Below, one piece after another: positions 1,980 to 37,679 of a DNA stretch of 64,000 nt; position 1 is the first letter of the stretch; each line of letters opens with the position of its first letter. The position numbers were made by a program, and so were the translations under genes. The stretch is from Escherichia coli (GTDB taxonomy: Bacteria > Pseudomonadota > Gammaproteobacteria > Enterobacterales > Enterobacteriaceae): assembly GCF_030384885.1 (NCBI RefSeq), contig NZ_CP128613.1. One strand, 5' to 3'. The notes below the pieces were generated by a model. That model had not been told where the DNA came from and searched no databases. It saw nothing but the letters and a program-made list of their open reading frames with translations.

Positions 1980-3143
1980 TTAGCGGGCGGCTTCGTATAT
2001 GCGGCGGCTGACATCCAGCGTAATGTCATGATTTTCGCCCAGTTGGGTCATACCGTGCTCTTCCAGTTTTTTCAACAAAGCCGGGATGGAGCTGCCGTCC
2101 AGACCGTAGTCGGAGAGGTGGGTCGGCACGCCTAATTGCTCAAAGAAATTGCGGGTTGCGGCAATCGCGGCGTCAATACGCTCATCGTCAGAACCTTCTG
2201 TGATGTTCCAGACGCGTTCAGCATATTGCAGCAGTTTAGCGCGTTTAGTGTCGCGTTTCTCATTCCACAGTGCAGGCAGGACGATAGCCAGCGTTTGCGC
2301 GTGATCCAGACCGTGCATCGCAGTCAGTTCGTGGCCCAGCATATGCGTTGCCCAATCCTGGGGTACACCTGCGCCAATTAAACCGTTCAGCGCCTGAGTC
2401 GCCGCCCACATAACGTTGGCGCGTACATCGTAGTTTTCTGGCTCTTTCAGGGCTTTCGGACCATCTTCGATCAGCGTCAGCAAAATGCCTTCTGCGAAAC
2501 GGTCCTGAATTTTGGCATCAACCGGTTTGGTAACATACTGTTCCACGGTGTGCACAAAGGCATCCACTACACCGTTAGCCACCTGACGCGGCGGCAGAGT
2601 GTAGGTATAAACCGGATCGAGCACGGCAAATACCGGCTGAACATGGGCAGAATGGAACGCCTGCTTGTCGCCTGTAGTTTTACGGGAGATGACCGCACCT
2701 GCGTTGGATTCTGAACCGGTCGCTGGCAGCGTCAGCACACAGCCCATCGGGATAGCGCTTTTAATCTCTTTACCGCCCGTTTGCAGAATGTGCCACGGAT
2801 CGATATTTTCTGGATAGTTAGCCGCCGCAGCGATAAATTTGGTGCCGTCCAGTACAGAACCGCCGCCAACCGCCAGCAGGAAGGTTACTTTCTGTTCGCG
2901 AACCAGTTTCACGGCGTTCATCAGCGTTTCATAAGCCGGGTTTGGCTCAATACCGCCAAATTCCAGCACGTCCATGCCTTTCAGGGCATCCAGAACTTGA
3001 TCGAGAACGCCGGTTTTTTTCACGCTGCCGCCGCCGTAGGTAATCAATACGCGAGCATCGTGAGGAATTTGTTCGCGTAAACCAGCGATTGCGCCTTTAC
3101 CAAAAAGAATGCGGGTTGGGGTGTGCAGATTAAAGTTGTTCAT
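1980..3143 (-). CDS. yqhD: NADPH-dependent aldehyde reductase (Fe-type alcohol dehydrogenase)
   Basis: Track ORF 1980..3167; start trimmed to [17 protein letters not shown] (annotated YqhD N-terminus, 387 aa). Confidence 0.95.
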
Positions 3144-3279
3144 TACTTGCTCCCTTTGCTGGGTCAATATGAGGGCAGAGATCGGTCTGCCTGATGTTTT
3201 TCATTGTGGTCGCCAGCGCCGTACCTCTCAATGCTCATTTCTGCCAATGTCTTGCCTATTTCTCCAGAGTGCTGGAGAA
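3144..3279. promoter_or_regulatory. yqhC / yqhD-dkgA divergent promoter region (expected YqhC operator)
   Basis: Intergenic between divergent yqhD and yqhC; YqhC is the known activator of yqhD-dkgA; operator not resolved by eye. Confidence 0.45.
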
Positions 3280-4236
3280 ATGCGACAAAATTGCGCACAA
3301 TCAAATTGCCGCATTATTCCTAAGAAATTACGCGATATGAAACGTGAAGAGATTTGCCGCTTGCTGGCGGGTAAAGTTAATAAACTGAAAAATAAAGAAA
3401 ATAGTTTATCAGAGCTATTGCCCGATGTGCGTTTGTTGTATGGCGAGACGCCTTTCGCACGTACGCCGGTGATGTACGAGCCTGGCATCATAATTCTCTT
3501 TTCTGGGCATAAAATCGGTTATATCAATGAACGCGTGTTTCGTTATGATGCAAATGAATATCTGCTGCTGACGGTGCCGTTGCCGTTTGAGTGCGAAACT
3601 TATGCCACGTCAGAGGTACCGCTGGCAGGGTTGCGTCTCAATGTCGATGTTTTGCAGTTACAAGAGCTGTTGATGGACATTGGCGAAGATGAGCATTTTC
3701 GGCCGTCGATGGCAGCCAGCGGGATTAACTCTGCCACGTTATCAGAAGAGATTTTATGTGCGGCGGAGCGGTTACTCGATGTGATGGAGCGACCGCTGGA
3801 TGCGCGTATTCTCGGCAAACAGATCATCCGCGAAATTCTGTACTACGTGCTGACCGGACCTTGCGGTGGCGCGTTACTGGCGCTGGTCAGCCGTCAGACT
3901 CACTTCAGCCTGATTAGTCGTGTGCTGAAACGAATTGAGAATAAATACACCGAAAACCTGAGCGTCGAGCAACTGGCGGCAGAAGCCAACATGAGCGTAT
4001 CGGCGTTCCACCATAATTTTAAGTCTGTCACTAGCACCTCGCCGTTGCAGTATTTGAAGAATTACCGTCTGCATAAGGCGCGGATGATGATTATCCACGA
4101 CGGCATGAAGGCCAGTGCAGCAGCGATGCGCGTCGGCTACGAAAGCGCGTCGCAATTTAGCCGTGAGTTTAAACGTTACTTTGGTGTGACACCGGGGGAG
4201 GATGCGGCAAGAATGCGGGCGATGCAGGGGAGTTAA
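3280..4236 (+). CDS. yqhC: AraC-family transcriptional activator of yqhD-dkgA
   Basis: Track ORF 3109..4236; start chosen at in-frame MRQNCAQ (318 aa, matching remembered YqhC length); C-terminal AraC HTH. Confidence 0.85.
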
Positions 4237-4275
4237 ATGCGTTCCCGGTACCGCAACCGGGAACGGGGGAAATTG

Positions 4276-4935
4276 TCAGGCGTTACAGTATTTCTTTTTA
4301 ATCACCACAAACAGCGTGCCTAACAAGCCTGCAGTTAACAAGGCAATCGGCAGGATCATCAGGAATGTCATTACCTGATCTTCATGCCGTTTAACGAACG
4401 GAATCATGCTTAAGGCATAGCCGAAACTGGTTACTACGCTGACCCACAGCAATCCGCTTAGCCAGTTGAAAAACTGGAAGCGGCGGTTTGGCAGACCGGA
4501 AATACCCGCCATGGTTGGCAACAGCGTACGGACAAATGCGAGAAAACGTCCAGCCAGCAGCGCCAGCAGACCGTGACGGTCAAACATACAGGTAGCACGC
4601 TGGTGATATTTGGCAGGAAGCTGTGCCAGCCAGCCTTTCACCGTTTTAGTATTCCCTAACCAGCGCCCCTGAATATAACTTAACCAGCAGCCCAAACTTG
4701 CTGCGGCGGTCAGGATCGCAATCGTTGGCAGAAAATCCATAACCCCCTGGGCAATCAATGCGCCTGCCAGTATCAACAAGCTGTCGCCTGGCAAAAATGA
4801 GGCGGGCAGCAGGCCGTTTTCTAAAAACAGCGTGGCAAACATGACAAAGTAAACAACGCTAACAATATGAGGATCCGCCAGCGCGGCAAAGTCGTGTTGC
4901 CAGAGCGCAGCGATGATATCTTGAATAACAGCCAT
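4276..4935 (-). CDS. yghB: DedA-family inner membrane protein
   Basis: Track ORF 219 aa [25 protein letters not shown]...; matches YghB. Confidence 0.9.
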
Positions 4936-5073
4936 GGACTTTCCTGTGGAACAGCGTTTAAGCCTTTATCTGCCTATTGTACTCCTGAATCACCCGGGAC
5001 GCCTTGATCCCGGACGCAACAATTTAAGACTTTTCACAATTAAATGTCTGCAAATTTGTCCAAACTGGCAACA

Positions 5074-6261
5074 TTACACAATTCGCGCAAAACCGGCGTC
5101 CAGATCGGCAATCAAATCATCGACATCTTCCAGACCAATATGCAGGCGAATCAAGGTCCCGCTAAAATCGATCTCGCCTTGCGGGCGAATGGCGGCGATA
5201 TGTTCTGGTTGATTTGCCAGGATCAACGATTCATACCCGCCCCACGAGTAGGCCATGCTGAATAAACTGTAGTTATCCAGATAGTTCGCCAGCTCTTCAT
5301 CATTGAGTTTTTTCTTAAGCACAAAGGAAAATAGCCCGCTGCTACCTGTAAAGTCTCGTTGCCAGAATTCGTGACCTTTACTGCCAGGCAGAGCAGGGTG
5401 GTTAACTCGCGCTACTTGCGGATGTTCCGCCAGCCATTCAGCTACTTTCAGGCTACTTTCGTGATGTTGACGCAGGCGAACACCCAAAGTGCGCAGGCCA
5501 CGACTGGTTATATAGGCGGTATCGGCATCGACCATCTGCCCCATCAGATAGGCATTCTCCCGTAGCTGCTCCCAGCAACGGGCATTGCATACGGCAGTAC
5601 CAATCATCGCATCTGAATGCCCAACCAGATATTTAGTAGCGGCCTGAATGGAAACATCAATGCCAAAATCCAGCGCCTTAAACAGCACGCCGGCCGCCCA
5701 GGTGTTATCGATCATAATGATGGCATCTGGCACTACACTGCGCACGGCGGCAACAATCGCCGGAACGTCGTGGACTTCCATGGTGATGGAGCCCGGCGAT
5801 TCCAGAAATACAATTTTAGTGTTTGGCTGTAGATGTTTAACAATATTCGCGCCAATCAGCGGATCAAACCACGATGTCGTTACGCCCAGTTTGCTGAGGA
5901 TTTTGCTACAGAAATCCTGACTCGGTTCATAGGCGGTGTTGGTCATCAACACATGATCGCCCTGTTTGACAAAAGCAAGAATGGAATTAGCAACCGCTGC
6001 TGCTCCGCAGGGGAACAGCACGCAGCCTGCGCCACCTTCCAGTTCGCACATCGCTTCTTGTAAGGAGAAATGGGTTAACGTTCCACGCCGTCCATAAAAC
6101 AACTCGCCATTGGCGCGATTGCGTGTCGCGTGTTTTTTGGCTTCCACACTGTCAAAGACCAGCGAAGACGCGCGCTGAATCACGCTATTTACCGCGCCGA
6201 GAGTGTATTTTTTGCTGCGTCCTGCGTTGACCAGTTGAGTATCAAGCTTGTTTTCCGCCAT
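5074..6261 (-). CDS. metC: cystathionine beta-lyase
   Basis: Track ORF 5074..6396; start trimmed to [25 protein letters not shown] (395 aa); PLP enzyme. Confidence 0.95.
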
Positions 6262-23563: not shown

Positions 23564-24256
23564 CTAGTGATAACCACACGCGGTCATAAAATCCGTAATC
23601 GCTTTTTCTGCATCAACCAGCACCTTTTCCAGTGGCTGATTGGCGTCGATATCAACCAGTTGTGCACCACCAAAGGTTAACTGTGGCGTTATGGCAATCT
23701 TTCTCGCCAGCGATTCCCGTTTATGGTCGGGTTTACGCGCGCAGGCAACTTCAAGGTCAACATTGAGTTTGATAACCAGATCAGGCTTATGGCTCGCCAT
23801 CCAGTGAAATGCTTTACGTTCCTGGCTTGCCAGCCATGAGACAAACCGGCCGCCTTCAACGTTAGGTGGGAACACCGTACCATCGTAAGCGCCAGGAATT
23901 TGGTCCTGAGGATAACGATCGGTTAAGACAATCAGCCCGCGACGACGACAGGCGAGCATATGACGAAAGCGTAACAGTCGGCGGGCGACGAAAGCGGTGA
24001 TCACCAGGGCCGGAACCGGACCCGGCAATTTTTTTGCCGTTTTCACTTCATTTTTTTCAATAGTCTTGTGCAGAGACTTTCCCATCAACGGTAATTTTGT
24101 CACTGCACGACCGACATTTCCGGCCTGTTTTCCTAAATGAACTCTTTCGGCAGCACCATATTTTTCGACAACGGTAATAAGATGTTCACACACCGTTGAC
24201 TTGCCTGAACCATCGCTACCAATAACGGCAATTAATGGAGGTGTTATTGACTGCAT
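23564..24256 (-). CDS. yghT: P-loop NTPase (Walker [11 protein letters not shown]), YghR/S/T paralog family
   Basis: Track ORF 230 aa; shares Walker A, DRYPQ and ARKPDH motifs with the two downstream paralogs. Confidence 0.88.
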
Positions 24257-24429
24257 GAATATATCCTTAAATTTAAATATCCATCAAAAATATTTATTTG
24301 GTTAATATGTTTTTATGAAAGCGTAATTCAGGTCAATGTCACAATTAACCATTGTCACAATAAGGTTGAACGGATATTCTGAGCACGGACCACGTAATAT
24401 TCAATACATTATTTTCTGCCGGGTTTTTC

Positions 24430-25143
24430 GTGAATCAACGTAATATGTCAATAATTAATTCCACGCCAGTGCGTGTTATTGCCATTGTAGGATGTGATGG
24501 TTCAGGTAAATCGACCCTCACGGCAAGCCTAGTAAATGAACTGGCAGCAACAATGCCAACAGAACACATTTATCTCGGGCAATCGTCCGGGCGAATTGGC
24601 GAATGGATTTCACAGCTCCCTGTTATTGGCGCACCTTTTGGGCGTTATCTGCGAAGTAAAGCGGCACATGTGCACGAAAAGCCCTCCACACCGCCTGGCA
24701 ATATTACTGCGCTGGTTATTTATCTGCTTTCCTGCTGGCGGGCGTATAAGTTTCGCAAAATGTTGTGTAAAAGCCAGCAAGGCTATCTGCTCATCACCGA
24801 CCGCTACCCGCAGGTTGAAGTGCCGGGTTTTCGCTTTGATGGCCCGCAACTGGCAAAAAACACGGGCGGTAACGGCTGGATAAAAATGTTAAGACAGCGC
24901 GAGCTCAAACTTTACCAATGGATGGCGTCTTATTTGCCCGTATTGTTGATTCGTCTTGGCATTGATGAACAAACCGCGTTTGCGCGTAAACCTGACCACC
25001 AACTGGCGGCGTTACAGGAAAAAATCGCTGTTACGCCGCAACTGACATTCAATGGCGCAAAGATCCTTGAACTGGATGGTCGGCAACCAGCCGATGAAAT
25101 TCTGCAAGCGTCACTACGCGCAATTCACGCCGCGCTTTCCTGA
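24430..25143 (+). CDS. yghS: P-loop NTPase (Walker A VGCDGSGKST), YghR/S/T paralog family
   Basis: Track ORF 237 aa, GTG start. Confidence 0.88.
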   Translation: MNQRNMSIINSTPVRVIAIVGCDGSGKSTLTASLVNELAATMPTEHIYLGQSSGRIGEWISQLPVIGAPFGRYLRSKAAHVHEKPSTPPGNITALVIYLLSCWRAYKFRKMLCKSQQGYLLITDRYPQVEVPGFRFDGPQLAKNTGGNGWIKMLRQRELKLYQWMASYLPVLLIRLGIDEQTAFARKPDHQLAALQEKIAVTPQLTFNGAKILELDGRQPADEILQASLRAIHAALS

Positions 25144-25173
25144 TCACCAAATGGATAGGGGATGATTTAACGA

Positions 25174-25932
25174 ATGGATGCACTACAAACACAAACTGTT
25201 AATAGTACAACCGCGCCGCAGCCCAACTACATTCCGGGGCTGATTGCGGTGGTCGGGTGTGATGGCACCGGTAAATCCACACTGACCACTGACCTGGTGA
25301 AATCGCTGCAACAACACTGGCAAACCGAGCGCCGCTATCTGGGGCTGCTCTCCGGCGAAGACGGCGACAAAATCAAACGGTTGCCGCTCGTTGGCGTCTG
25401 GCTGGAACGGCGACTGGCGGCCAAATCCTCGAAAACCCAAAGCATGAAAACCAAATCTCCGGCGCTATGGGCGGCGGTGATTATGTACTGCTTCTCGCTG
25501 CGAAGAATGGTGAATCTACGCAAGGTTCAGCGACTGGCGCAAAGTGGCGTTCTGGTGGTCAGCGATCGCTTCCCGCAGGCTGAAATTTCGGGCTTTTATT
25601 ATGACGGACCGGGGATTGGCGTCGAGCGTGCGACCGGGAAAATCAGCATGTTTCTGGCACAGCGCGAACGGCGTTTATACCAAAAAATGGCGCAATACCG
25701 TCCTGAATTAATTATTCGTTTGGGGATTGATATTGATACTGCCATCTCCCGCAAGCCTGACCATGACTATGCCGAGCTGCAGGACAAAATCGGTGTCATG
25801 TCGACGATTGGCTATAACGGCACAAAAATTCTTGAGATTGATTCCAGAGCGCCCTACAGCGAAGTGCTGGAACAGGCACAGAAGGCGGTTTCTCTGGTTG
25901 CAATCGTTTCTGACCGCCGAAGTTTAACTTAA
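25174..25932 (+). CDS. yghR: P-loop NTPase (Walker A VGCDGTGKST), YghR/S/T paralog family
   Basis: Track ORF 252 aa MDALQTQTVNSTTAPQPNYIPGLIAVVGCDGTGKST... Confidence 0.88.
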   Translation: MDALQTQTVNSTTAPQPNYIPGLIAVVGCDGTGKSTLTTDLVKSLQQHWQTERRYLGLLSGEDGDKIKRLPLVGVWLERRLAAKSSKTQSMKTKSPALWAAVIMYCFSLRRMVNLRKVQRLAQSGVLVVSDRFPQAEISGFYYDGPGIGVERATGKISMFLAQRERRLYQKMAQYRPELIIRLGIDIDTAISRKPDHDYAELQDKIGVMSTIGYNGTKILEIDSRAPYSEVLEQAQKAVSLVAIVSDRRSLT

Positions 25933-25977
25933 GGTTGGCGGGATACTTTTTACTATCAACGATAAGGTCAGGCTGAA

Positions 25978-27327
25978 TTGGCGGGGTTTAACATCAAACA
26001 TTGGTTTGCAGATGGCGCGTTTCGCACCATTATTCGCAATAGCGCCTGGTTAGGCTCCAGTAATGTCGTGAGCGCTTTGCTGGGTCTGTTGGCGCTCTCG
26101 TGTGCCGGTAAAGGGATGACGCCCGCCATGTTTGGCGTACTGGTGATTGTGCAATCGTACGCCAAGTCGATCAGCGATTTTATTAAGTTTCAGACATGGC
26201 AGCTGGTGGTTCAGTACGGAACGCCAGCCTTGACCAATAATAATCCGCAGCAATTTCGCAATGTCGTCTCATTTTCCTTCTCGTTGGATATCGTCAGCGG
26301 CGCGGTGGCGATTGTCGGCGGCATTGCCTTACTCCCTTTTCTTTCCCATTCATTAGGTCTGGATGACCAAAGCTTTTGGCTGGCAGCGCTGTATTGCACG
26401 CTCATTCCTTCAATGGCTTCCTCCACACCGACCGGCATTCTGCGTGCGGTAGATCGCTTCGATTTGATTGCTGTACAGCAGGCGACGAAACCTTTTCTGC
26501 GCGCAGCGGGGAGCGTCGTAGCCTGGTATTTTGATTTTGGTTTTGCGGGTTTTGTTATTGCCTGGTACGCATCGAATCTGGTTGGCGGCACCATGTACTG
26601 GTGGTTTGCCGCGCGCGAATTACGCCGCAGAAATATCCATAACGCCTTCAAATTGAATCTGTTTGAGTCTGCCCGACACATTAAAGGCGCGTGGAGTTTT
26701 GTCTGGTCAACCAACATTGCCCACTCCATCTGGTCGGCACGTAACTCGTGCAGCACAGTGTTGGTGGGGATCGTGTTAGGACCCGCTGCCGCCGGGTTAT
26801 TTAAAATCGCCATGACATTCTTCGATGCCGCCGGAACGCCAGCGGGTTTACTGGGCAAAAGTTTTTACCCAGAGGTAATGCGTTTAGATCCGCGTACCAC
26901 CAGACCGTGGTTGTTAGGCGTGAAGTCCGGTTTACTGGCGGGCGGAATCGGTATTCTGGTGGCGCTCGCGGTGTTGATCGTCGGCAAGCCGCTCATTTCG
27001 CTGGTGTTTGGCGTTAAGTATCTCGAAGCGTATGACCTGATTCAGGTAATGCTTGGCGCAATTGTGATTTCGATGCTGGGCTTCCCACAGGAGTCATTGC
27101 TATTGATGGCGGGAAAACAGCGCGCTTTTCTCGTGGCGCAAACCATCGCCTCAATCGGCTACATCGTATTGCTGTTCATGTTCTGTCATCTGTTTGGCGT
27201 GCTGGGGGCTGCATTTGCTTACTTCGGTGGGCAATGTCTGGATGTGGTGCTCTCGTTAATTCCAACCTTAAAGGCATTTTTTCAGCGCCATTCCTTGCTT
27301 TATAACGCAGCCGGAGAGAAATCCTGA
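25978..27327 (+). CDS. yghQ: polytopic inner membrane protein, MOP/Wzx-type flippase-like; start codon uncertain (first ATG in frame at 26116)
   Basis: Track ORF 449 aa (non-ATG start at 25978); many hydrophobic helices; stop overlaps next gene start (TGATG). Confidence 0.8.
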   Translation: MAGFNIKHWFADGAFRTIIRNSAWLGSSNVVSALLGLLALSCAGKGMTPAMFGVLVIVQSYAKSISDFIKFQTWQLVVQYGTPALTNNNPQQFRNVVSFSFSLDIVSGAVAIVGGIALLPFLSHSLGLDDQSFWLAALYCTLIPSMASSTPTGILRAVDRFDLIAVQQATKPFLRAAGSVVAWYFDFGFAGFVIAWYASNLVGGTMYWWFAARELRRRNIHNAFKLNLFESARHIKGAWSFVWSTNIAHSIWSARNSCSTVLVGIVLGPAAAGLFKIAMTFFDAAGTPAGLLGKSFYPEVMRLDPRTTRPWLLGVKSGLLAGGIGILVALAVLIVGKPLISLVFGVKYLEAYDLIQVMLGAIVISMLGFPQESLLLMAGKQRAFLVAQTIASIGYIVLLFMFCHLFGVLGAAFAYFGGQCLDVVLSLIPTLKAFFQRHSLLYNAAGEKS

Positions 27328-28151
27328 TGATGAGAAAATATTTCCCGCTTGAGGCGAGCGAGCGTCTATTTATTGCAGTTGAAGAAGATGATGTCGTTGA
27401 TGCGCAGGTCAGTTTACCGCCGACTATCGCAACAGGTTGTACCACCGAAATCATTCATGATAATTACGCGTTATGCCTGCAATTCTGGCTGAATGGCGTT
27501 GATCGTCAGGAATTACTGCGTTTAATCCACAAACAAGCCAAAGGCGAGGGGCTTACGGCTGACGAGCGTAAACAGTTTAAATATATGCGGGCGCGTTATA
27601 AGCATCTGCGTTTCGCTCAGCGACTGTATCTGAAAAAACACAAGGCAGGATTTTTATTCGGCAAAACGACGGTATGTCTGGGCCATTTTCAGGATGGTTT
27701 CCGTAACGGTAAAAAAAATATTGTGTCGTATTACGGCAACCTGTTACGGATTTATTTAAGCTCTCCGGTCTGGTCGTTGGTGAACTATTCATTACGCCAT
27801 AGCCAGTTAGAAAGCGTAAGCGGTTTTATTGCCTATCGGCAAAAGCAAATGCATACCCTGAAAGAGATAATTGCCAAACCGCGACTAACCGGCAGGGAAT
27901 TTCATGATGTGCGAAAAATCATCAGCCAGCAGGTTTCTTATTACGACACCCTAAGATCGCTTGATCCTGAAAAAAAAGAAGCGTTACAGATTTCCCGCTT
28001 CCTCGCCGCCATTAATGGCCTGATGGGGGATAAACACGACGACATGGTGGCGGATGATATGGAAAACCGCCAGTCGTATGATGCACCGATGGCGCTGGAT
28101 AGCGATATTCGTCAGCGCTTAGAACTGCTGATTTCGCGTTTTCCGCTATAA
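27327..28151 (+). CDS. hypothetical soluble protein, no recognisable motif
   Basis: Track ORF 274 aa MMRKYFPLEASERLFIAVEEDD...; start overlaps yghQ stop; codon usage protein-like. Confidence 0.6.
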   Translation: MMRKYFPLEASERLFIAVEEDDVVDAQVSLPPTIATGCTTEIIHDNYALCLQFWLNGVDRQELLRLIHKQAKGEGLTADERKQFKYMRARYKHLRFAQRLYLKKHKAGFLFGKTTVCLGHFQDGFRNGKKNIVSYYGNLLRIYLSSPVWSLVNYSLRHSQLESVSGFIAYRQKQMHTLKEIIAKPRLTGREFHDVRKIISQQVSYYDTLRSLDPEKKEALQISRFLAAINGLMGDKHDDMVADDMENRQSYDAPMALDSDIRQRLELLISRFPL

Positions 28152-28159
28152 CCGGAGCA

Positions 28160-28723
28160 ATGATGTCATCTCGTTTGATTATTGCGCTGATTATCATGCT
28201 CTTAGCCCCGGGTGTGCAGGCACACAATTTCGTCACGGGTAAAACGGTTACCCCTGTTTATATCCAGGAAGGCGGCGAGCTGCTTCTGAATAGCGACGAC
28301 GAAATTCACTACCAAAAGTGGAACAGCACACAGCTGGCGGGAAAAGTCCGCATTATTCAGTATATCGCCGGGCGTAAGTCGGCGAAGAAAAAGAACTCAC
28401 TGTTAATTAAAGCGGTTGAAGCGGCAAACTTTCCGCAGGATCGTTTTCAGCCCACCACCATTGTGAACACCGATGATGCCATCTTTGGTACTGGCTATTT
28501 TGTCGTTGGCAAAATCGAAAAAAATAAACGCCGCTATCCGTGGGCGCAATTCGTTATTGACGGCAATGGACAGGGACGCGTTGCCTGGCGGTTGCCGGAG
28601 CAGAGTTCAACCATTCTGGTGCTGAATAAAGCCGGGCAAATTCAGTGGGCAAAGGACGGCAGCCTGACGCCGGAAGAGGTAGATCATGTCATTGCGCTGG
28701 CGCAGAAGCTGATCAATGAATAA
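28160..28723 (+). CDS. YtfJ-family periplasmic protein (paralog of core ytfJ), signal peptide MMSSRLIIALIIMLLAPGVQA
   Basis: Track ORF 187 aa; collinear similarity to remembered E. coli YtfJ (shared stretches VVQYIAGR.., TTIVNTDDAI, YPW.QFV.D, WAKDG.LTPEEV). Confidence 0.75.
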   Translation: MMSSRLIIALIIMLLAPGVQAHNFVTGKTVTPVYIQEGGELLLNSDDEIHYQKWNSTQLAGKVRIIQYIAGRKSAKKKNSLLIKAVEAANFPQDRFQPTTIVNTDDAIFGTGYFVVGKIEKNKRRYPWAQFVIDGNGQGRVAWRLPEQSSTILVLNKAGQIQWAKDGSLTPEEVDHVIALAQKLINE

Positions 28724-28752: not shown

Positions 28753-29823
28753 ATGAAGCTGGTTGAACACTACATCATGCGTGGTACTCGCCGTCTGGTG
28801 CTGATTATCGTCGGTTTTCTGATCTTTATTTTCGCCAGCTACTCCGCACAGCGTTATCTGACCGAAGCGGCAAATGGGACATTAGCTCTTGATGTTGTGC
28901 TGGATATTGTTTTCTACAAGGTGCTGATTGCACTGGAGATGTTGTTACCTGTTGGACTGTATGTGTCAGTTGGCGTGACGCTAGGGCAGATGTATACCGA
29001 CTCGGAAATTACCGCTATTTCTGCGGCGGGGGGGAGTCCGGGACGCTTGTACAAAGCCGTTCTTTATCTGGCGATACCGCTAAGTATTTTTGTCACCCTT
29101 CTGTCGATGTATGGTCGTCCGTGGGCTTATGCGCAGATTTATCAACTGGAGCAACAGTCGCAGTCGGAGCTGGATGTTCGCCAGTTGCGGGCAAAGAAAT
29201 TTAACACTAACGATAACGGACGAATGATCCTTTCGCAGACGGTTGATCAGGATAATAATCGCCTGACTGACGTGCTGATTTATACTTCTACTGCCAATCG
29301 AACCCGTATTTTCCGCGCCCGTTCGGTTGATGTAGTTGACCCATCACCCGAGAAACCGACCGTTATGTTGCATAACGGGACCGCCTATCTTCTCGATCAT
29401 CAGGGACGTGACGACAACGAACAGATCTACCGTAATCTGCAATTGCATCTGAATCCGCTGGATCAAAGCCCTAACGTCAAACGCAAAGCAAAATCGGTCA
29501 CGGAGCTGGCGCGCTCCGCCTTTCCTGCCGATCATGCCGAACTGCAATGGCGACAAAGCCGTGGCCTGACAGCATTGTTGATGGCGCTGCTGGCCATTTC
29601 ATTAAGTCGGGTAAAACCGCGGCAAGGGCGATTTTCAACGTTATTGCCACTGACGTTGCTGTTTGTTGCCATTTTTTATGGCGGCGACGTCTGCCGTACG
29701 CTGGTGGCTAACGGCGCGATTCCCCTCATTCCTGGTTTGTGGTTAGTACCCGGACTCATGCTAATGGGCCTGCTGATGCTGGTCGCACGCGACTTCTCTT
29801 TGCTGCAGAAATTTTCCCGATGA
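28753..29823 (+). CDS. LptF-like permease (YjgP/YjgQ family), paralog of core lptF
   Basis: Track ORF 356 aa; N-terminal TM bundle, conserved YTDSEITAISAAG segment resembling LptF LYTESEITVMHACG, large periplasmic insert, C-terminal TMs. Confidence 0.8.
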   Translation: MKLVEHYIMRGTRRLVLIIVGFLIFIFASYSAQRYLTEAANGTLALDVVLDIVFYKVLIALEMLLPVGLYVSVGVTLGQMYTDSEITAISAAGGSPGRLYKAVLYLAIPLSIFVTLLSMYGRPWAYAQIYQLEQQSQSELDVRQLRAKKFNTNDNGRMILSQTVDQDNNRLTDVLIYTSTANRTRIFRARSVDVVDPSPEKPTVMLHNGTAYLLDHQGRDDNEQIYRNLQLHLNPLDQSPNVKRKAKSVTELARSAFPADHAELQWRQSRGLTALLMALLAISLSRVKPRQGRFSTLLPLTLLFVAIFYGGDVCRTLVANGAIPLIPGLWLVPGLMLMGLLMLVARDFSLLQKFSR

Positions 29824-30899
29824 ATGTTTTCAGTCGCTATTTAATCCGTCATCTCTTTCTCGGTTTTGCCGCCGCCGCAGGGCTATTGCTGCCGCTTTTT
29901 ACTACCTTCAACCTGATTAACGAACTGGATGATGTCAGCCCGGGTGGTTATCGCTGGACTCAGGCGGTGCTGGTGGTGCTGATGACCTTACCGCGCACAC
30001 TGGTCGAACTTTCGCCGTTTATCGCCTTATTGGGGGGGATTGTCGGCTTGGGGCAGTTATCGAAAAACAGTGAGCTTACCGCCATTCGCAGCACGGGGTT
30101 TTCTATCTTCCGTATTGCACTGGTGGCGCTGGTTGCCGGGATATTGTGGACTGTTTCATTAGGCGCGATAGATGAGTGGGTGGCGTCGCCATTGCAGCAA
30201 CAGGCGCTGCAAATCAAATCGACTGCCACTGCGTTGGGGGAGGACGATGACATTACCGGCAATATGCTGTGGGCCAGGCGTGGTAATGAATTTGTGACGG
30301 TGAAATCGCTGAACGAGCAGGGCCAGCCGGTGGGCGTGGAGATATTTCATTACCGCGACGATCTCTCGCTCGAATCCTACATTTATGCACGCAGTGCCAC
30401 CATTGAAGACGACAAAACGTGGATCCTGCATGGTGTGAATCATAAAAAATGGCTGAATGGCAAAGAAACGCTGGAAACATCTGATAATCTTGCCTGGCAA
30501 TCGGCCTTCACCAGTATGAATCTTGAAGAGTTATCGATGCCGGGAAATACTTTTTCTGTCCGTCAACTTAATCATTACATCCATTATTTGCAGGAAACCG
30601 GGCAACCCAGCAGCGAATACCGCCTTGCACTGTGGGAAAAACTGGGACAACCCATCTTGACCCTGGCGATGATTTTGCTGGCTGTGCCGTTTACCTTTAG
30701 TGCCCCGCGTTCGCCTGGGATGGGTAGCCGTCTCGCTGTAGGCGTCATCGTGGGCTTACTCACCTGGATCAGCTATCAAATCATGGTCAATCTGGGATTG
30801 CTATTTGCGTTGAGCGCACCTGTTACCGCGCTCGGTTTACCGATAGCGTTTATGCTGGTGGCGTTGAGCCTGGTGTATTGGTATGACAGTCAACATTAA
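29820..30899 (+). CDS. LptG-like permease (YjgP/YjgQ family), paralog of core lptG
   Basis: Track ORF 29739..30899; start trimmed to MNVFSRYLIRHLFLGF (359 aa), ATGA overlap with upstream permease; segment NSELTAIRSTGFS resembles LptG. Confidence 0.8.
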   Translation: MNVFSRYLIRHLFLGFAAAAGLLLPLFTTFNLINELDDVSPGGYRWTQAVLVVLMTLPRTLVELSPFIALLGGIVGLGQLSKNSELTAIRSTGFSIFRIALVALVAGILWTVSLGAIDEWVASPLQQQALQIKSTATALGEDDDITGNMLWARRGNEFVTVKSLNEQGQPVGVEIFHYRDDLSLESYIYARSATIEDDKTWILHGVNHKKWLNGKETLETSDNLAWQSAFTSMNLEELSMPGNTFSVRQLNHYIHYLQETGQPSSEYRLALWEKLGQPILTLAMILLAVPFTFSAPRSPGMGSRLAVGVIVGLLTWISYQIMVNLGLLFALSAPVTALGLPIAFMLVALSLVYWYDSQH

Positions 30900-30933
30900 A
30901 CCCGCCGTGGCGCAGCACCACAGCGGGCTCACA

Positions 30934-32106
30934 TTACTGCTTCAGAGTAGCAAATGCCTGAATGATGGCATCGATTTGCTCACGAGTGTGGGCAGCGTTT
31001 ACGCTACAGCGCAGCAGCGTGATGCCTGCAGGCGCGGCAGGTGGCAGGATAAGATTCACATAAACGCCCAGCGAAATAAGCTCGCGCCAGATGCGTAAAC
31101 CTTCCTCTTTCGAACCGATTATCACTGGCACTACCGGGCTAATATGTGAACTTAACTCGTAACCCAGTTTTTGCAGACCGTCATACAGATGGTTGGCGTT
31201 ATCCATCAGCTTTTGCCGCAACTCTGGTTGTGAGGCAATGGTTCTTAACGACGAGCGCACGGTCGCAATGCAGGACGGAGAAGGAGAGGCGGTAAAAATA
31301 TACGGGCGGCTGCCGTAGCGCAGCACTTCCATCGCTTCCGAACCGACAGCAAAACCGCCAATCGAGGCCAGACTTTTACTGAAAGTACCAACGATAATAT
31401 CCACATCATCTTCAACGCCAACGGCTTCAGCCAGTCCGCGCCCCGTTGCGCCTAACACGCCAAACGAATGCGCTTCATCGACAATCAAATAACCACCGAG
31501 ACGACGTTTGATATCAACAATTTCCGCCAGCGGCGCAATGTCACCGAGCATACTGTAGATGCCTTCAACGATGATAATCGCCTCTTTTGCCCGTTCACCG
31601 AGGCGAACCATGCGCCGTTCCAGATCTTTAGCATCGTTATGGCGGAAACGAATAATTTCCGCTCCACCGAGAGAACAGGCGTCATAAATACTGGCGTGGC
31701 TGTCGGCATCCAGTAACACTACGGCGTTATGGTCGGCAAGTGCGCTGATGACACCTAAATTAGCGGTATAACCGGTTGAAAAAACGATAGCGGTAGGGCG
31801 ATTGAAAAACTCGGCAATTTCTTTCTCTAACGCCAGATGTGGCGCATAGCTGCCATTAGCCATACGAGAACCGGTAGTGCCGGTGCCTTGGGCCGCTAAC
31901 GCTGCCTGACCTTCGGCGATGGCATCATGATTGAAGGTTAAACCGAGATAATTATTGGTCCCGGCCAGGATCACGTTTTTATCGCCGATCCGGCCTTCGG
32001 TGGCGGAATACACTTCATCAATACAGGTACCAAACGGCGTTAACCCGTTGTCACTAAATTGCAGTCGCTCGCCAGCAAGGCGCGCATATTTATCGTATAG
32101 CCCCAT
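30934..32106 (-). CDS. PLP-dependent alpha-oxoamine synthase, serine palmitoyltransferase-like (third AOS paralog besides bioF and kbl)
   Basis: Track ORF 390 aa; PLP-lysine motif IVGTFSKSLASIGG, DEAHSFG motif, glycine-rich GTGTTGSR segment; TAATG overlap with upstream ACP. Confidence 0.85.
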   Translation of the reverse strand: MGLYDKYARLAGERLQFSDNGLTPFGTCIDEVYSATEGRIGDKNVILAGTNNYLGLTFNHDAIAEGQAALAAQGTGTTGSRMANGSYAPHLALEKEIAEFFNRPTAIVFSTGYTANLGVISALADHNAVVLLDADSHASIYDACSLGGAEIIRFRHNDAKDLERRMVRLGERAKEAIIIVEGIYSMLGDIAPLAEIVDIKRRLGGYLIVDEAHSFGVLGATGRGLAEAVGVEDDVDIIVGTFSKSLASIGGFAVGSEAMEVLRYGSRPYIFTASPSPSCIATVRSSLRTIASQPELRQKLMDNANHLYDGLQKLGYELSSHISPVVPVIIGSKEEGLRIWRELISLGVYVNLILPPAAPAGITLLRCSVNAAHTREQIDAIIQAFATLKQ

Positions 32107-32354
32107 TATTTATTCTCCAGCCATGGAAGTAGAGTTTCCATTAATTGCGCAGGGGTTTTGACATCCAGCAGAATATTAATAGGAATGGAAATATCGAATC
32201 TGTCTTCCAGCATCATTAAGAGATCCATCACTTTGATCGACTCCAGGCCAAGATCGTTGACGAGATCGCTGTCGGGCTTAATTTCCACACCGTTTTCGAC
32301 CAAATCCTGTAAACAGGAAAGGATGTAATCCATTACTATTTCACGATTTACCAT
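32106..32354 (-). CDS. acyl carrier protein (dedicated), candidate phosphopantetheine site in DLGLESIKVMDL
   Basis: Track ORF 82 aa; acidic four-helix ACP-like sequence; position between reductase and AOS. Confidence 0.7.
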   Translation of the reverse strand: MVNREIVMDYILSCLQDLVENGVEIKPDSDLVNDLGLESIKVMDLLMMLEDRFDISIPINILLDVKTPAQLMETLLPWLENK

Positions 32355-32385
32355 AGAAACGTTAACACACCTTTAAACAAGACAA

Positions 32386-33300
32386 TCAAAATAGCCCGTT
32401 GCGTAATGCGTGTTCCAGGCTAATCCCGGGAAACCAATTAATATCTTCAGAAATACGGTTATTACTTGCTGACCAGTCGGTGTGGGTTAATTCACGGATT
32501 TTCGAGCGGGTCAGCATAGGTTCTTTACCTGCCAGGCGACTCAACGCGGTACTGATATCCGCAAGGCAGGTGAGTACCGACAGAGGAATACCAACCATTC
32601 GAACGGAACCGCAACGGGCGTCGGCGGCAAGTTGCTGTACGCGTTGCCAGTCATAGCCGCCGGCGACGCCATCGCATAATTCATAGGTTTGCGTCTGTAC
32701 AGTTTCGGCGCTTAACCACTGCCCCACGGCTTGCGCGAAATCGGTGACGTGCAGGAAAGAGAGCTGTGTATCTGGCGCACCAAGTCGTGGCAGCAGGCCG
32801 CGCAGCATCCAGTCAAACAGCGGTTTTAACTCTTTATCGCCGGGACCATACACGGCTGTCGGGCGAAAAATGCCCAGCGTAATTTCGTCAGCCATTGCGG
32901 TCAGTCGTTGTTCGGCGACGTGTTTGGAATTTGCGTACCAGGAGAGTTCGGGATGGCGCGCCGCCAGCGAAGAGATAAACAGAAAACGTTGGCAAAAGCC
33001 GCTCTCTTTTGCCGCTTGCATCAGGCGCAGGCTGCCGTCAACGTTACAGCGGGTAAAAATCTCTTCTTTGTGTCCGCGCACTTGCCCGGCGCAATGGACC
33101 ACCGCGCTGGCTCCGGCAACCAGTTCGCTAAGCGAATGTGTATCTTCCAGCGAACCGCGCACCCAGATGAGATTATCATTGACGTGAGCGCGGGCAGTAC
33201 GCGTCAATGCGCGAACGTGAAAGCCGCGGGCGAGCAGGTTATCGATAATATATTTACCGATAAACCCGGTAGCGCCCGTCACCGCGACAGTTTGATTCAT
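32386..33300 (-). CDS. NAD(P)-dependent reductase of the epimerase/dehydratase SDR type (candidate 3-keto-sphinganine/ceramide reductase)
   Basis: Track ORF 304 aa; N-terminal VAVTGATGFIGKY Rossmann motif, YANSK (YxxxK); ATGA overlap with upstream FAAL. Confidence 0.8.
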   Translation of the reverse strand: MNQTVAVTGATGFIGKYIIDNLLARGFHVRALTRTARAHVNDNLIWVRGSLEDTHSLSELVAGASAVVHCAGQVRGHKEEIFTRCNVDGSLRLMQAAKESGFCQRFLFISSLAARHPELSWYANSKHVAEQRLTAMADEITLGIFRPTAVYGPGDKELKPLFDWMLRGLLPRLGAPDTQLSFLHVTDFAQAVGQWLSAETVQTQTYELCDGVAGGYDWQRVQQLAADARCGSVRMVGIPLSVLTCLADISTALSRLAGKEPMLTRSKIRELTHTDWSASNNRISEDINWFPGISLEHALRNGLF

Positions 33301-35015
33301 GCCATTGATTCCTGCACATGAAGGCTTGCAGCATAACGTTTTTTCGCTTCCGCACGGGCAGGCTTGCCGGAGGACGTTCGGGGAATACTGTGGGGCGGCA
33401 ACAGATCGATAGCCGCTGTTACGCCAAATTCGCTTTGGATCCGTGCTGCCAGTGCGTGGATAAGCTGCCCACGACGTTCTTCGTCGCTGATCCTACACTG
33501 GATCTGCAAAATGATTTTTTCCTGGGCGGTAACAAAAGCAATCGCATCGCCAGAATGAATTTCCGGTTCCTGTTCCGCAATATATTCAATATCCTGCGGC
33601 CAGATATTACGGCCACGAATAATAATCAGATCTTTAATGCGCCCGGTGACATACAGATAACCGTCCAGCAGATAACCGAGGTCGCCGGTATCTAACCAGC
33701 CCGTCGCGGCAATCTCGTCTTGCGAAACCTGGTCGCCAAAGTAACCGCTCATCAGGCTGGGGCCGGAGATGCAAATATGGCCTACCACACGTTCCGCGAC
33801 TGGCATACCTGCTTCATTGCGGATTTCAATGCCATGTTCCGGCAACGCTTTACCGCAGTTGACGAAAGTCGATACGGCGCGTGTTTCAGCACCCGGCGTG
33901 ACGGCTTTGCCCTGATATTCAAGAATGTCGCGATCCACTTCGTTAACCACAACCCCGGAGGCTTCATCAGAGAAGCTGACAGCCAGCGCATTTTCTGCCA
34001 GTCCGTAGCACGGCATGAAAGTTTTATCGTCAAAGTTAACCTGACGGAAACATTCAGCGAATTGATGGAGTTGTTCTGCGGAGATCGGCTCAGCACCAAT
34101 ACCAGCAACGCGCCAGCAGGAAAGATCCAGTTCAGCGAGATCTTTTTCATTCACGCGGCGCTGGCACAATTCATAGCCAAACGGCGGCGCAACGGAAACG
34201 GTGCCGCGATTTTTACTGATCAATTTAAGCCATTGCAGAGGACGCATGGCAAAATCCTGAGTGCGCAAATAATCTACTGAGAGCTGCGTGGCGACGGGGG
34301 TCAGGAGAAAGCCGACCAGTCCCATATCATGGTAGAAAGGCAGCCAGGAGACGCAGCGGTCGCCAGGGCGTAATTTAATGCCATCGTGGCTTATAGCACG
34401 TAGATTAGCCATCACTTCGCGATGGGTGATAATGACGCCACGGGGAAAACGGGTGCTGCCGGAGGTGTACTGGAGGTAGGCGATATCGTTCGGAACTGGA
34501 CGCTGGAGTACAACATCGGCTTCCGGTAATGCCTTAAACCAGGCGTGGCTTAAAACATGTAATTCGGGGTTGTTATGCGTAGCAGCATTGACCAGTGGCA
34601 ACCACTCATCACCAGTGATAATGGCTGCGGGCTGGCAACTTGCCAGTAGACCCTGCAGTTTGGCGCTCCAGGAATCCCGCTGACCGACGCCCATTGGAAT
34701 TGCCAACGGGACGGCGACTAAGCCGGCATACTGGCAGGCAAAAAAAGCCTCTACAAACCCGCTACTCGTTTCGGCAATCAGCGCCACGCGATCGCCTTTT
34801 TTCAGATTCAGTGATAACAACCGCTTCGCACCAGCTTCGGCACGCGCTTTTAACGTCTGATATTCCAGTTGATCTTCAAGTTGGCAACGTCTGTCATAAA
34901 AATTCATTCCGGCGCTACTCAGAGCGGCGTAGTCCAAAGCATCAACCAGCGTTGGAAAATCGGCATAGCGCATAGGTAGGGAATGCGTAAAGATGTTATT
35001 AGACATATACACCAC
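33297..35015 (-). CDS. fatty acyl-AMP ligase / acyl-ACP synthetase (adenylate-forming); start at GTG 35015 or ATG ~35006
   Basis: Track ORF 572 aa; AMP-binding signature YTSGSTRFPRGV, second motif TGDLGY; first gene of the minus-strand operon. Confidence 0.85.
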   Translation of the reverse strand: MVYMSNNIFTHSLPMRYADFPTLVDALDYAALSSAGMNFYDRRCQLEDQLEYQTLKARAEAGAKRLLSLNLKKGDRVALIAETSSGFVEAFFACQYAGLVAVPLAIPMGVGQRDSWSAKLQGLLASCQPAAIITGDEWLPLVNAATHNNPELHVLSHAWFKALPEADVVLQRPVPNDIAYLQYTSGSTRFPRGVIITHREVMANLRAISHDGIKLRPGDRCVSWLPFYHDMGLVGFLLTPVATQLSVDYLRTQDFAMRPLQWLKLISKNRGTVSVAPPFGYELCQRRVNEKDLAELDLSCWRVAGIGAEPISAEQLHQFAECFRQVNFDDKTFMPCYGLAENALAVSFSDEASGVVVNEVDRDILEYQGKAVTPGAETRAVSTFVNCGKALPEHGIEIRNEAGMPVAERVVGHICISGPSLMSGYFGDQVSQDEIAATGWLDTGDLGYLLDGYLYVTGRIKDLIIIRGRNIWPQDIEYIAEQEPEIHSGDAIAFVTAQEKIILQIQCRISDEERRGQLIHALAARIQSEFGVTAAIDLLPPHSIPRTSSGKPARAEAKKRYAASLHVQESMA

Positions 35016-35377
35016 GAAAAAAATTGGATATCAGAAATAAAATGACAATAATGCGGTGGATTATATAGGCATAAAAGATAAATGAGATAGTATTTTCATC
35101 GGTGCGATATTGAACATTGATTTAAATAATAGGTTTGGCTTTGTTGTTTTTATTGTGAATGATATTTAATTTATGAATATATTAAGAAGAAGCCTTGTTT
35201 GGTTGCCTTAAATCGACAAAAGGCATTGAGGCGCTTCTGTGTAGTCTCTGACCTTATCTTAATTATTAATAAATACTATTTATTCTTTGTTTGTATTCAT
35301 TGGGTTGATTATTAAGATGCCGTTCGTTGCTGTTGCAATCTGTTTGTCACCGTTAATTATTTGTTATCCACAGAGAT
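35016..35377. promoter_or_regulatory. AT-rich divergent promoter region between the FAAL operon (-) and yghO (+)
   Basis: ~360 bp strongly AT-rich with A/T tracts; flanked by divergent start codons; typical of H-NS-bound, horizontally acquired regulatory regions. Confidence 0.5.
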
Positions 35378-36520
35378 ATGGAATGCGATCTGCTGATGAT
35401 TAAAATTGAAAAAGTAATTAATAAAAATGACATTAAGGCATTTATCGCTTTTCCGTCATCACTTTATCCCGATGATCCAAACTGGATACCCCCTTTGTTC
35501 ATTGAACGCAGCGAGCATTTGTCGGCGAAGAATCCGGGGACGGACCATATTATCTGGCAGGCGTGGGTAGCAAAAAAAGCGGGGCAGATAGTCGGGCGGA
35601 TTACCGCGCAAATCGATACCTTGCACCGCGAGCGTTACGGTGACGATACCGGTCATTTTGGCATGATTGACGCCATTGATGATCCGCAGGTTTTTGCCGC
35701 TTTGTTTGGCGCAGCGGAAGCATGGTTGAAGTTACAAGGTGCCAGTATGATCAGCGGGCCTTTCAGCCTGAATATCAATCAGGAAAGCGGATTACTGATT
35801 GAAGGTTTCGACACTCCGCCCTGTGCGATGATGCCGCACGGTAAACCGTGGTATGCCGCGCATATTGAACAATTGGGTTATCACAAAGGTATTGATTTAC
35901 TGGCGTGGTGGATGCAACGAACCGATCTCACTTTCTCTCCGGCGCTAAAAAAACTGATGGATCAGGTACGCAAAAAGGTGACCATTCGTTGCATCAATCG
36001 TCAGCGGTTTGCTGAAGAGATGCAGATCCTGCGTGAGATTTTCAACTCTGGCTGGCAGCACAACTGGGGATTTGTGCCGTTTACCGAACATGAATTCGCT
36101 ACCATGGGCGATCAACTAAAGTATCTGGTACCGGACGATATGATCTACGTCGCTGAGATTGGTTCTGCACCCTGCGCGTTTATTGTCGGCTTGCCGAACA
36201 TCAACGAGGCGATTGCCGATCTGAACGGATCGCTCTTTCCCTTCGGCTGGGCAAAATTGCTGTGGCGCTTAAAAGTCAGCGGTGTGCGAACTGCGCGAGT
36301 GCCGCTGATGGGCGTGCGTGACGAGTATCAGTTCAGCCGCATCGGCCCGGTGATTGCGCTGTTATTGATTGAAGCCTTACGCGATCCGTTTGCTCGCCGG
36401 AAGATCGATGCGCTGGAAATGTCATGGATCCTCGAAACCAATACAGGCATGAATAACATGCTGGAACGCATTGGAGCGGAGCCGTACAAGCGTTACCGAT
36501 TGTATGAAAAGCAGATTTAA
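35378..36520 (+). CDS. yghO: YghO, full-length; candidate N-acyltransferase (GNAT/FemAB-like fold suspected, not verified)
   Basis: Track ORF 380 aa MECDLLMIKIEKVINKNDIKAF...; position between the lipid operon and glcC. Confidence 0.75.
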   Translation: MECDLLMIKIEKVINKNDIKAFIAFPSSLYPDDPNWIPPLFIERSEHLSAKNPGTDHIIWQAWVAKKAGQIVGRITAQIDTLHRERYGDDTGHFGMIDAIDDPQVFAALFGAAEAWLKLQGASMISGPFSLNINQESGLLIEGFDTPPCAMMPHGKPWYAAHIEQLGYHKGIDLLAWWMQRTDLTFSPALKKLMDQVRKKVTIRCINRQRFAEEMQILREIFNSGWQHNWGFVPFTEHEFATMGDQLKYLVPDDMIYVAEIGSAPCAFIVGLPNINEAIADLNGSLFPFGWAKLLWRLKVSGVRTARVPLMGVRDEYQFSRIGPVIALLLIEALRDPFARRKIDALEMSWILETNTGMNNMLERIGAEPYKRYRLYEKQI

Positions 36521-36658
36521 TACCAGATCCCATTAAGCGCACGGACGGTCATTCGGGAGAGTGTATAGATGAACAGATTTAACATCAGATCCTATTAAGC
36601 GCAGGGGCGGTCCCCTCGCCCCTCAGGGAGAGGGTTAGGGTGAGGGGGAAAACTCGGC

Positions 36659-37429
36659 TCACATTCCCCCCTTGTTCATCTCCAGTGGCACCGCCGAGCG
36701 AATCAAATGGTGGCCTTCCAGTTCGATATCGTGGAGATTCTTTTTCACGGTCCGCACATGATCACGTGCGGCGCGCTGGGCGACGTGCGGCAGTCGCTGC
36801 AACACCGCGTTGTAGATCCGCGCATGTTGGCGATCGATCTGCTTTTTTTGCTGTGGTCGATGGTAGAGATTATTTACGCTGGCAAACACTGAATTAAACA
36901 TCAGATCGGTCAATGATTGCAGCGTAAAAACTAGCACCTGATTGTGGGAAGCCTGACAAATGGCAAGATGGAAAGCATGATCCAGCTGCGCGTGTTCGAT
37001 CAGCGAAATTTCTTTGTTGTTTTCACTGGCGGCGAGCATTTTTTCATAACAGCGGGTTATCAAAACAAAATCCGCCTGGGTTCCCAGCGTAGCTGCCAAC
37101 CTTGCCGATTCGCCTTCCAGCAATGCGCGAACGTCGAGTAGATCGTATAGCGTTCGCGGCTGTGTACTGAACAGATGGATCAGCGGGCTGGTGTCCTGCA
37201 CGCGATTAAGGCGTGCGACACGAGAATCGCGCCCCTGTGCTGTTTCAATAATCCCGCGTCCGCGCAGCACGGTCAGCCCTTCACGCAGTGCGGAACGCGA
37301 GAAGCCGAGCTTTTCACACAGTCGACGCTCCGAAGGAAGCGGCTGACCGACCTTCAGCACGCCGTCGATAATTAACCGTTCGATACTCTCTGCAACCACT
37401 TCGCAAATAGGGCGACGTTCATCTTTCAT
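36659..37429 (-). CDS. glcC: GntR-family activator of the glycolate operon
   Basis: Track ORF 36659..37489; start trimmed to MKDERRPICEVVAESIERLIIDG. Confidence 0.93.
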   Translation of the reverse strand: MKDERRPICEVVAESIERLIIDGVLKVGQPLPSERRLCEKLGFSRSALREGLTVLRGRGIIETAQGRDSRVARLNRVQDTSPLIHLFSTQPRTLYDLLDVRALLEGESARLAATLGTQADFVLITRCYEKMLAASENNKEISLIEHAQLDHAFHLAICQASHNQVLVFTLQSLTDLMFNSVFASVNNLYHRPQQKKQIDRQHARIYNAVLQRLPHVAQRAARDHVRTVKKNLHDIELEGHHLIRSAVPLEMNKGGM

Positions 37430-37679
37430 TCCCGGACCTCGTGCACAGGTAGGACCAATTTTTCTGTTCTTGATTCGCAAAACACGCACATCACGTAAGT
37501 GATTATGTTACATCAATTTAACATTAAGTTAACCAAGGCAAGGTCACAGAGCTGGAAAAAAAATGGTCTGACCGGTAGCTAAAGAGATAGACGAAAACGA
37601 AAAGCCCGCTTAATAACTGTTCACAGAAGCAGCGCGCAAAAATCAGCTGCCACACAACACAACAAAGCGAACCCTACTC
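37430..37679. promoter_or_regulatory. glcC / glcDEFGBA divergent promoter region
   Basis: Intergenic between divergent glcC and glcD; known regulated promoter pair in E. coli. Confidence 0.5.

Follow-up and report, generated by a model that had tools for sequence, protein, structure and literature searches.

The window (the whole stretch of Escherichia coli DNA analysed here, 64,000 nucleotides) carries yghO beside a set of genes for predicted sphingolipid synthesis and transport (Table 1). In the ORF reading of the window, yghO runs from ATG to stop, and its 380 codons are uninterrupted, as the original prediction had it. The segment from 30900 to 37500 is 100% identical to E. coli 2013C-4282 (NZ_CP027579.1), in which yghO is annotated (RefSeq). 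In other genera, the YghO homologues all have a length of 374 aa and start at the residue equivalent to Met7 (position 35396), and the functional start codon may therefore lie at 35396, six codons downstream of 35378. At the 3' end of the gene, an imperfect tandem duplication (36512-36635; 39-nt copies, 87% identical, 62-71 nt spacing) takes in the region of the yghO stop codon. This duplication lengthens the yghO-glcC spacer, which is 138 bp in the window compared to 6 bp in both K-12 and BL21. Most of the listed E. coli genomes match the 6.6 kb in two pieces, which would fit absence of the duplication insert from these strains.

Table 1. Features of the yghO region in the window
Feature	Coordinates	Strand	Description and basis
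lptF2	28753..29823	+	LptF paralogue, intact; TIGR04407, 323 bits; G7 tract at about 29021-29028
lptG2	29820..30899	+	LptG paralogue, candidate sphingolipid exporter subunit; TIGR04408, 307 bits; RefSeq annotation; Caulobacter LptF2/G2 study
spt	30934..32106	-	Serine palmitoyltransferase (ECD_02854 orthologue); NF047599 equivalog, 597.6 bits, cut-off 500
acpR (ACP)	32106..32354	-	Specialised acyl carrier protein AcpR, 82 aa (ECD_02853 orthologue); RefSeq annotation and family search
SDR	32386..33300	-	NAD-dependent epimerase/dehydratase family, CerR-like keto-reductase candidate (ECD_02852 orthologue); RefSeq annotation and family search
aasR (FAAL)	33297..35006	-	Specialised acyl-ACP synthetase AasR (ECD_02851 orthologue); NF006624, 873 bits; RefSeq annotation
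aasR-yghO intergenic region	35007..35377	.	Divergent, AT-rich, 371 bp, 30% GC; both promoters presumed here
yghO	35378..36520	+	380 aa, or 374 aa from 35396; putative tandem-GNAT N-acyltransferase, predicted bCerS/CC_1154 orthologue

The five genes that were proposed to form a set (aasR, SDR, acpR, spt and yghO) are all present in the window, and all five ORFs are intact. yghO does diverge from the FAAL operon across an AT-rich region, as predicted, with the spacer well below the GC content of the window (51.5%). The further claim that this region is a shared promoter did not find the same backing: a scan with sigma-70 and terminator consensus patterns returned a single weak sigma-70 match, fewer than the shuffled expectation, and the promoters are therefore only presumed. 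The SDR protein starts with MNQTVAVTGATGFIGK, and its Rossmann motif begins at residue 8, at the extreme N-terminus; no Sec or Tat signal peptide is evident there. Caulobacter CerR, in contrast, is reported to be periplasmic.

The product of lptF2 (356 aa) shows 70% identity to a Pluralibacter protein without gaps. In NZ_CP027579.1 the tract at 29017-29030 has six G residues, compared to seven in the window, and the gene is called frameshifted there by PGAP. Either the one-base difference comes from a homopolymer error in sequencing or assembly, or the site is prone to slippage; the poly-G motif pattern searched for is absent from both the BL21 locus and a second comparison locus (L006). Farther upstream (23564-28723) are yghT, yghS, yghR-like, yghQ-like and ytfJ-like genes and a gene for a 274-aa hypothetical protein without a match in the family search. 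yghT, yghS and yghR are three paralogous P-loop "dTMP-kinase-like" genes and yghQ encodes a MOP-family flippase. Together with the 274-aa gene, they accompany the spt-yghO cluster in Serratia, Erwinia, Rosenbergiella, Mangrovibacter, Pseudocitrobacter and Hafnia. These seemingly uncharacterised proteins are candidates for phosphorylation or other modification of a sphingolipid head group and for its flipping.

Searched as a single sequence against Pfam, NCBIfam and PDB sequences, E. coli YghO gives nothing meaningful; its relationship to the GNATs is visible only by profile and structure methods. The family is large and uniform: an exhaustive search collects 6341 50%-identity cluster representatives at an E-value of 1e-3 or lower and 1080 at 1e-30 or lower, mostly about 370-400 aa in length. 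The closest representatives in a cluster look-up are from Deltaproteobacteria and Kiloniellales MAGs, with none from Caulobacter. In an alignment of 90 family members, P122, W224 and N349 are invariant, while W220, N223, G225, P228, R301, G306, E341, W344, L346, K365 and Y367, mainly in the C-terminal half, are near-invariant. Scanned singly, eight of these 90 proteins match Acetyltransf_1 at an E-value of 1e-3 or lower and 35 at 0.1 or lower; Acetyltransf_6 and FemAB_like are each matched by three at 0.1 or lower. When PDB sequences are searched with a profile, the matches are mainly GNATs, aligned in most cases over residues 303-379 or so (motif A/B region). The best match is 3tt2 (E-value: 0.005), in which GVRRPWRGR----GIALA is aligned to the profile segment GVrkeYqksrlGaglA with a four-residue insertion (E-value: 0.005-0.05). 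The pyrophosphate-binding loop of motif A (Q/R-x-x-G-x-G/A, after beta4) is poorly conserved across the family, and the N-terminal GNAT domain of YghO has no motif A.

The structural model of YghO is a soluble two-domain alpha/beta protein with a GNAT fold (mixed sheet with beta4-beta5 splay) in both domains, and on this model YghO is a member of the GNAT superfamily with two GNAT domains. In structure comparison, it scores 24.1 with MAB_4324 ("tandem repeat GNAT"; 7q3a), 22.9 with the glucosamine N-acetyltransferase GlmA (5kf1), 21.0 with the tandem GNAT ORF14 (2wpw), 20.6 with MshD (1ozp), 16-17 with Eis proteins, 16.1 with N-myristoyltransferase, 13.2 with FemX and about 12 with single-domain GNATs. 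The original prediction had left a GNAT/FemAB-like fold unconfirmed and had named Acetyltransf_6 as a family to compare. The GNAT part of this expectation holds; the Acetyltransf_6/FemAB part fits less well than a tandem GNAT of the MshD/GlmA type. Aligned with hhalign, the N- and C-terminal halves of YghO give a weak in-register match (E-value: 0.004, probability 9%), and the case for an internal duplication thus rests on structure rather than sequence. Because a motif-A-like segment (about residues 301-327) and most of the invariant residues are in the C-terminal domain, this domain is likely to be the CoA-binding and catalytic one, with any catalytic residues expected there, by analogy with MshD-type enzymes. 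The N-terminal domain probably supplies the acceptor site for a lipid.

YghO differs from its structural relatives in several respects. MshD (mycothiol synthase), GlmA, MAB_4324 and ORF14 show 14-16% identity to YghO, which is 40-80 residues longer; these tandem GNATs act on acetyl-CoA and a small polar amine, whereas the presumed substrates of YghO are long-chain lipids. N-myristoyltransferase (2p6e; 11% identity) is eukaryotic and acylates the N-terminal glycine of proteins. The eukaryotic ceramide synthases (Lag1/CerS, TLC domain) share the chemistry proposed for YghO, acyl-CoA-dependent N-acylation of a sphingoid base, but these are polytopic membrane proteins and YghO is modelled as a soluble alpha/beta GNAT of unrelated fold, so that the likeness would be one of analogy and not homology. 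The Pfam domain TRAM_LAG1_CLN8 has no match in YghO or in the 90 family members. The title of the 2022 bacterial ceramide synthase paper speaks of "convergent evolution".

Some longer proteins also belong to the family, including three of 784, 630 and 940 aa and UniProt A0A9E6RH89 (752 aa); the 784-aa protein matches in two stretches. At least one family member in AFDB50 (Foldseek) is fused to an LptF/LptG permease, an arrangement that would directly tie lipid synthesis to transport.

Among proteins with an assigned pathway, YghO resembles the Caulobacter ceramide synthase CC_1154 (CCNA_01212; also named CerS, bCerS and Aca), whose gene is among the five structural genes needed for (dihydro)ceramide synthesis. 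YghO was compared with a homologue from a Caulobacter sp. MAG and, for C. crescentus CC_1154 itself, with a published table. The MAG homologue shows 44% identity over 374 of 374 aa (E-value: 8e-108), and the published values for CC_1154 and ECD_02850 of E. coli BL21(DE3) are 44% identity and 98% coverage (E-value: 1e-107; Table S2, PMC9386255). YghO and bCerS (Stankeviciute et al. 2022, Olea-Ozuna et al. 2021) are alike in length (about 375-390 aa), full-length homology, lack of transmembrane segments and linkage to spt, acpR, aasR, cerR and lptF2/G2. They differ in gene position: yghO is directly divergent to the aasR operon, while Caulobacter bCerS is downstream of lptF2-lptG2 and about 8 kb from spt. 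The Caulobacter sp. MAG has the published Caulobacter order (SDR-ACP-SPT, followed by lptG2 and then the YghO homologue).

Scanning of one genome per species yielded 80 loci with a YghO homologue, in which the neighbour proteins of the window were sought by tblastn. At least 9 kb is available on both sides of the homologue in 49 of these loci. In 46 of the 49, homologues of FAAL, SDR, ACP, SPT or LptF2/LptG2 are found within 10 kb; spt itself is present in 31, and three have no sphingolipid genes nearby. The exact divergent arrangement of FAAL and yghO occurs in 28 of the 80 loci, which are from Enterobacterales, Pseudomonas, Salinicola, Nitrococcus, Methyloversatilis, other Betaproteobacteria, Desulfuromonadales and Gemmatimonadetes. 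The Nitrosomonas homologue adjoins lptF2/lptG2 only, in agreement with the published position of Neut_1100 apart from Neut_0458-0461. Serratia, Pluralibacter and Erwinia keep the linkage of yghO to the operon but have a different other flank, and the gene block shows about 80% amino acid identity across genera of Enterobacterales. Based on homology and genomic association together, YghO is a member of the bCerS family and almost certainly the E. coli orthologue of bCerS/CerS/Aca.

The role of YghO as N-acyltransferase in the five-gene set is already known as an orthology-based proposal. Padilla-Gomez et al. 2022 (PMC9386255) list "aca: CC_1154, yghO ECD_02850" for BL21(DE3), propose that YghO N-acylates the long-chain base and find a cluster of all five genes in C. 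crescentus and E. coli BL21 alone. The same study demonstrates function for the E. coli proteins AasR, AcpR and Spt and shows that AcpR carries 4'-phosphopantetheine and that SPTEc forms 3-oxo-sphinganine. BL21 gave sphinganine- and ceramide-like TLC spots, "possibly by intrinsic enzymes", an indirect hint of N-acylation, and BL21 with empty vectors gave no such lipid. A 2026 preprint draws the sphingolipid locus of E. coli UTI89 beside those of Caulobacter and Sphingomonas and reports that sphingolipid transport in Caulobacter needs LptF2/G2/C2. Homologues of bCerS are routine markers of sphingolipid potential in metagenomes. With the assignment in the literature and the family characterised in Caulobacter, the present analysis therefore confirms known biology. 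The confirmation lies in the fold, the breadth of synteny and the evidence of selection; two labels discussed below are also removed.

Of 5426 complete E. coli genomes, 4548 (about 84%) contain yghO DNA, with at least 80% of the gene covered in 4529, and the 6.6-kb block from spt to glcC is at least 80% covered in 4066 (about 75%). In K-12, IS5 has taken the place of the whole stretch between the 3' end of yghQ and roughly codon 13 of yghO. The genes lost are those for the hypothetical protein, the ytfJ-like protein, LptF2, LptG2, Spt, AcpR, the SDR and AasR, together with the yghO promoter and start. In MG1655 (positions 2738-6103 of the extracted locus), IS5 lies between a C-terminally truncated yghQ and yghO, and homology to the window resumes at yghO nucleotide 41. 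The 378-aa "YghO" that PGAP calls in K-12 takes its first residues from the IS5 boundary. Because IS5 removed both the operon and the 5' end of the gene, K-12 yghO is an orphan remnant, and studies based on it therefore examine an N-terminally altered protein.

This remnant bears on whether YghO could be a GNAT acyl- or acetyltransferase for some other acceptor (a protein lysine, an amino sugar or an amino lipid) that is only loosely coupled to the spt operon. A near-complete yghO is kept in K-12 without the operon, the closest solved structures are of enzymes that acetylate glucosamine (GlmA), a mycothiol precursor (MshD) and aminoglycosides (Eis), and the three loci without sphingolipid genes would fit such a role. 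The K-12 copy, however, is truncated by IS5 and without its promoter and first ~13 codons. The ASKA clone of K-12 yghO was included in a screen for lysine acetyltransferases and is not among the four enzymes reported there. Linkage of the family to spt-pathway or lptF2/G2 genes is also very strong and phylum-wide, and ceramide synthesis requires the Caulobacter orthologue. A different acceptor is thus unlikely.

It is also quite improbable that the locus is cryptic and decaying in E. coli and that YghO has no current function. Such a reading would account for the loss of the operon from K-12, the absence of yghO from about 16% of complete genomes, the lptF2 frameshift flagged at the G tract in an otherwise identical RefSeq record and the fact that native E. 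coli sphingolipid is not reported in the literature. Against decay, all of the ORFs are intact, the block is kept in about three quarters of complete genomes and the amino acid identity noted above is held across Enterobacterales genera. yghO is also under strong purifying selection: the window and BL21 copies differ by 39 synonymous and 8 non-synonymous changes (dN/dS 0.05). The corresponding values are 0.07 for spt and 0.06 for lptF2/G2 (range 0.06-0.16 for spt, lptF2, lptG2 and the SDR gene), compared to 0.02 for glcD and 0.07 for glcE. The closeness of the yghO value to those of spt and the glc genes argues for a maintained function.

The segment 30900-40231 of the window is unusually divergent from BL21 (yghO 95.9% and glcD 93.6% nucleotide identity, dS 0.18-0.29), which points to import of the segment or to a deep-branching lineage. 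The identity of yghO to almost every other complete E. coli genome is 95-99%.

A legacy annotation makes YghO a DNA-binding transcriptional regulator, which would act on the divergent lipid operon. Some UniProt/GenBank family entries are named "DNA-binding protein" or "DNA-binding transcriptional regulator", and local regulators are typically placed divergently to the genes that they control. The fold contradicts such a role: the two GNAT domains account for the whole chain, and no DNA-binding Pfam family matches YghO or the 90 family members. An HTH-type regulator can be rejected with near certainty. The DNA-binding or unrelated fold that would have spoken against the original prediction is accordingly not what the model contains. 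Naming in AFDB50 (Foldseek) is inconsistent ("N-acetyltransferase", "DNA-binding protein" and "dATP pyrophosphohydrolase"). Caulobacter segnis D5VLY1, for example, is labelled a pyrophosphohydrolase and shows 43% identity and a TM of 0.97 to YghO. The dATP pyrophosphohydrolase label is ruled out by the fold.

YghO is thus very probably a bCerS orthologue, a two-GNAT cytoplasmic enzyme that N-acylates the long-chain base made by the AasR-AcpR-Spt module. The original prediction had named it for the acylation step from gene context; beyond context, the candidate is now supported by the full-length identity of 44%, the linkage in 46 of 49 loci and the dN/dS of 0.05. The proposed model for YghO function is as follows. 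The divergent AasR-AcpR-Spt module would supply a long-chain base. YghO, about 375 aa long and either soluble or peripheral in the cytoplasm, would most likely take a long-chain acyl group off an acyl thioester and attach it to the C2 amino group of this base. The acyl donor would be acyl-CoA, by analogy with Caulobacter, but may instead be acyl-AcpR; the Caulobacter enzyme is said, from work by Stankeviciute in 2022, to use acyl-CoA in vitro. The acceptor would be 3-ketosphinganine in the order argued for by the Klein laboratory, in which 3-ketosphinganine is acylated first and then reduced by periplasmic CerR, or sphinganine in the eukaryote-like order proposed by the Geiger laboratory. The product would be an (oxo)dihydroceramide, with reduction by the neighbouring SDR, and the derived lipid would probably be exported by the adjacent LptF2/LptG2 paralogues. 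As BL21 with empty vectors lacks such lipid, the locus may not be expressed in laboratory culture.

A bolder reading, which is possible but to which we hold only tentatively, is that a ceramide-based lipid is made natively by the majority of natural E. coli and by many further Enterobacterales (Serratia, Erwinia, Pantoea, Hafnia and Pluralibacter). In such strains YghO would be the synthase, a dedicated LptF2/G2 system would carry the lipid to the outer membrane, and the products of yghQRST would serve to modify its head group and to flip it. Two things would have hidden the lipid: the IS5-associated loss in K-12 and silence of the AT-rich promoter region in laboratory culture. This reading is already half-implied by the literature. 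The textbook lipids of E. coli are PE, PG, cardiolipin and LPS, and activity of YghO and its neighbours in wild strains would mean that this inventory is incomplete for about three quarters of them. Sphingolipids from bacteria can affect host immunity and the robustness of the outer membrane.
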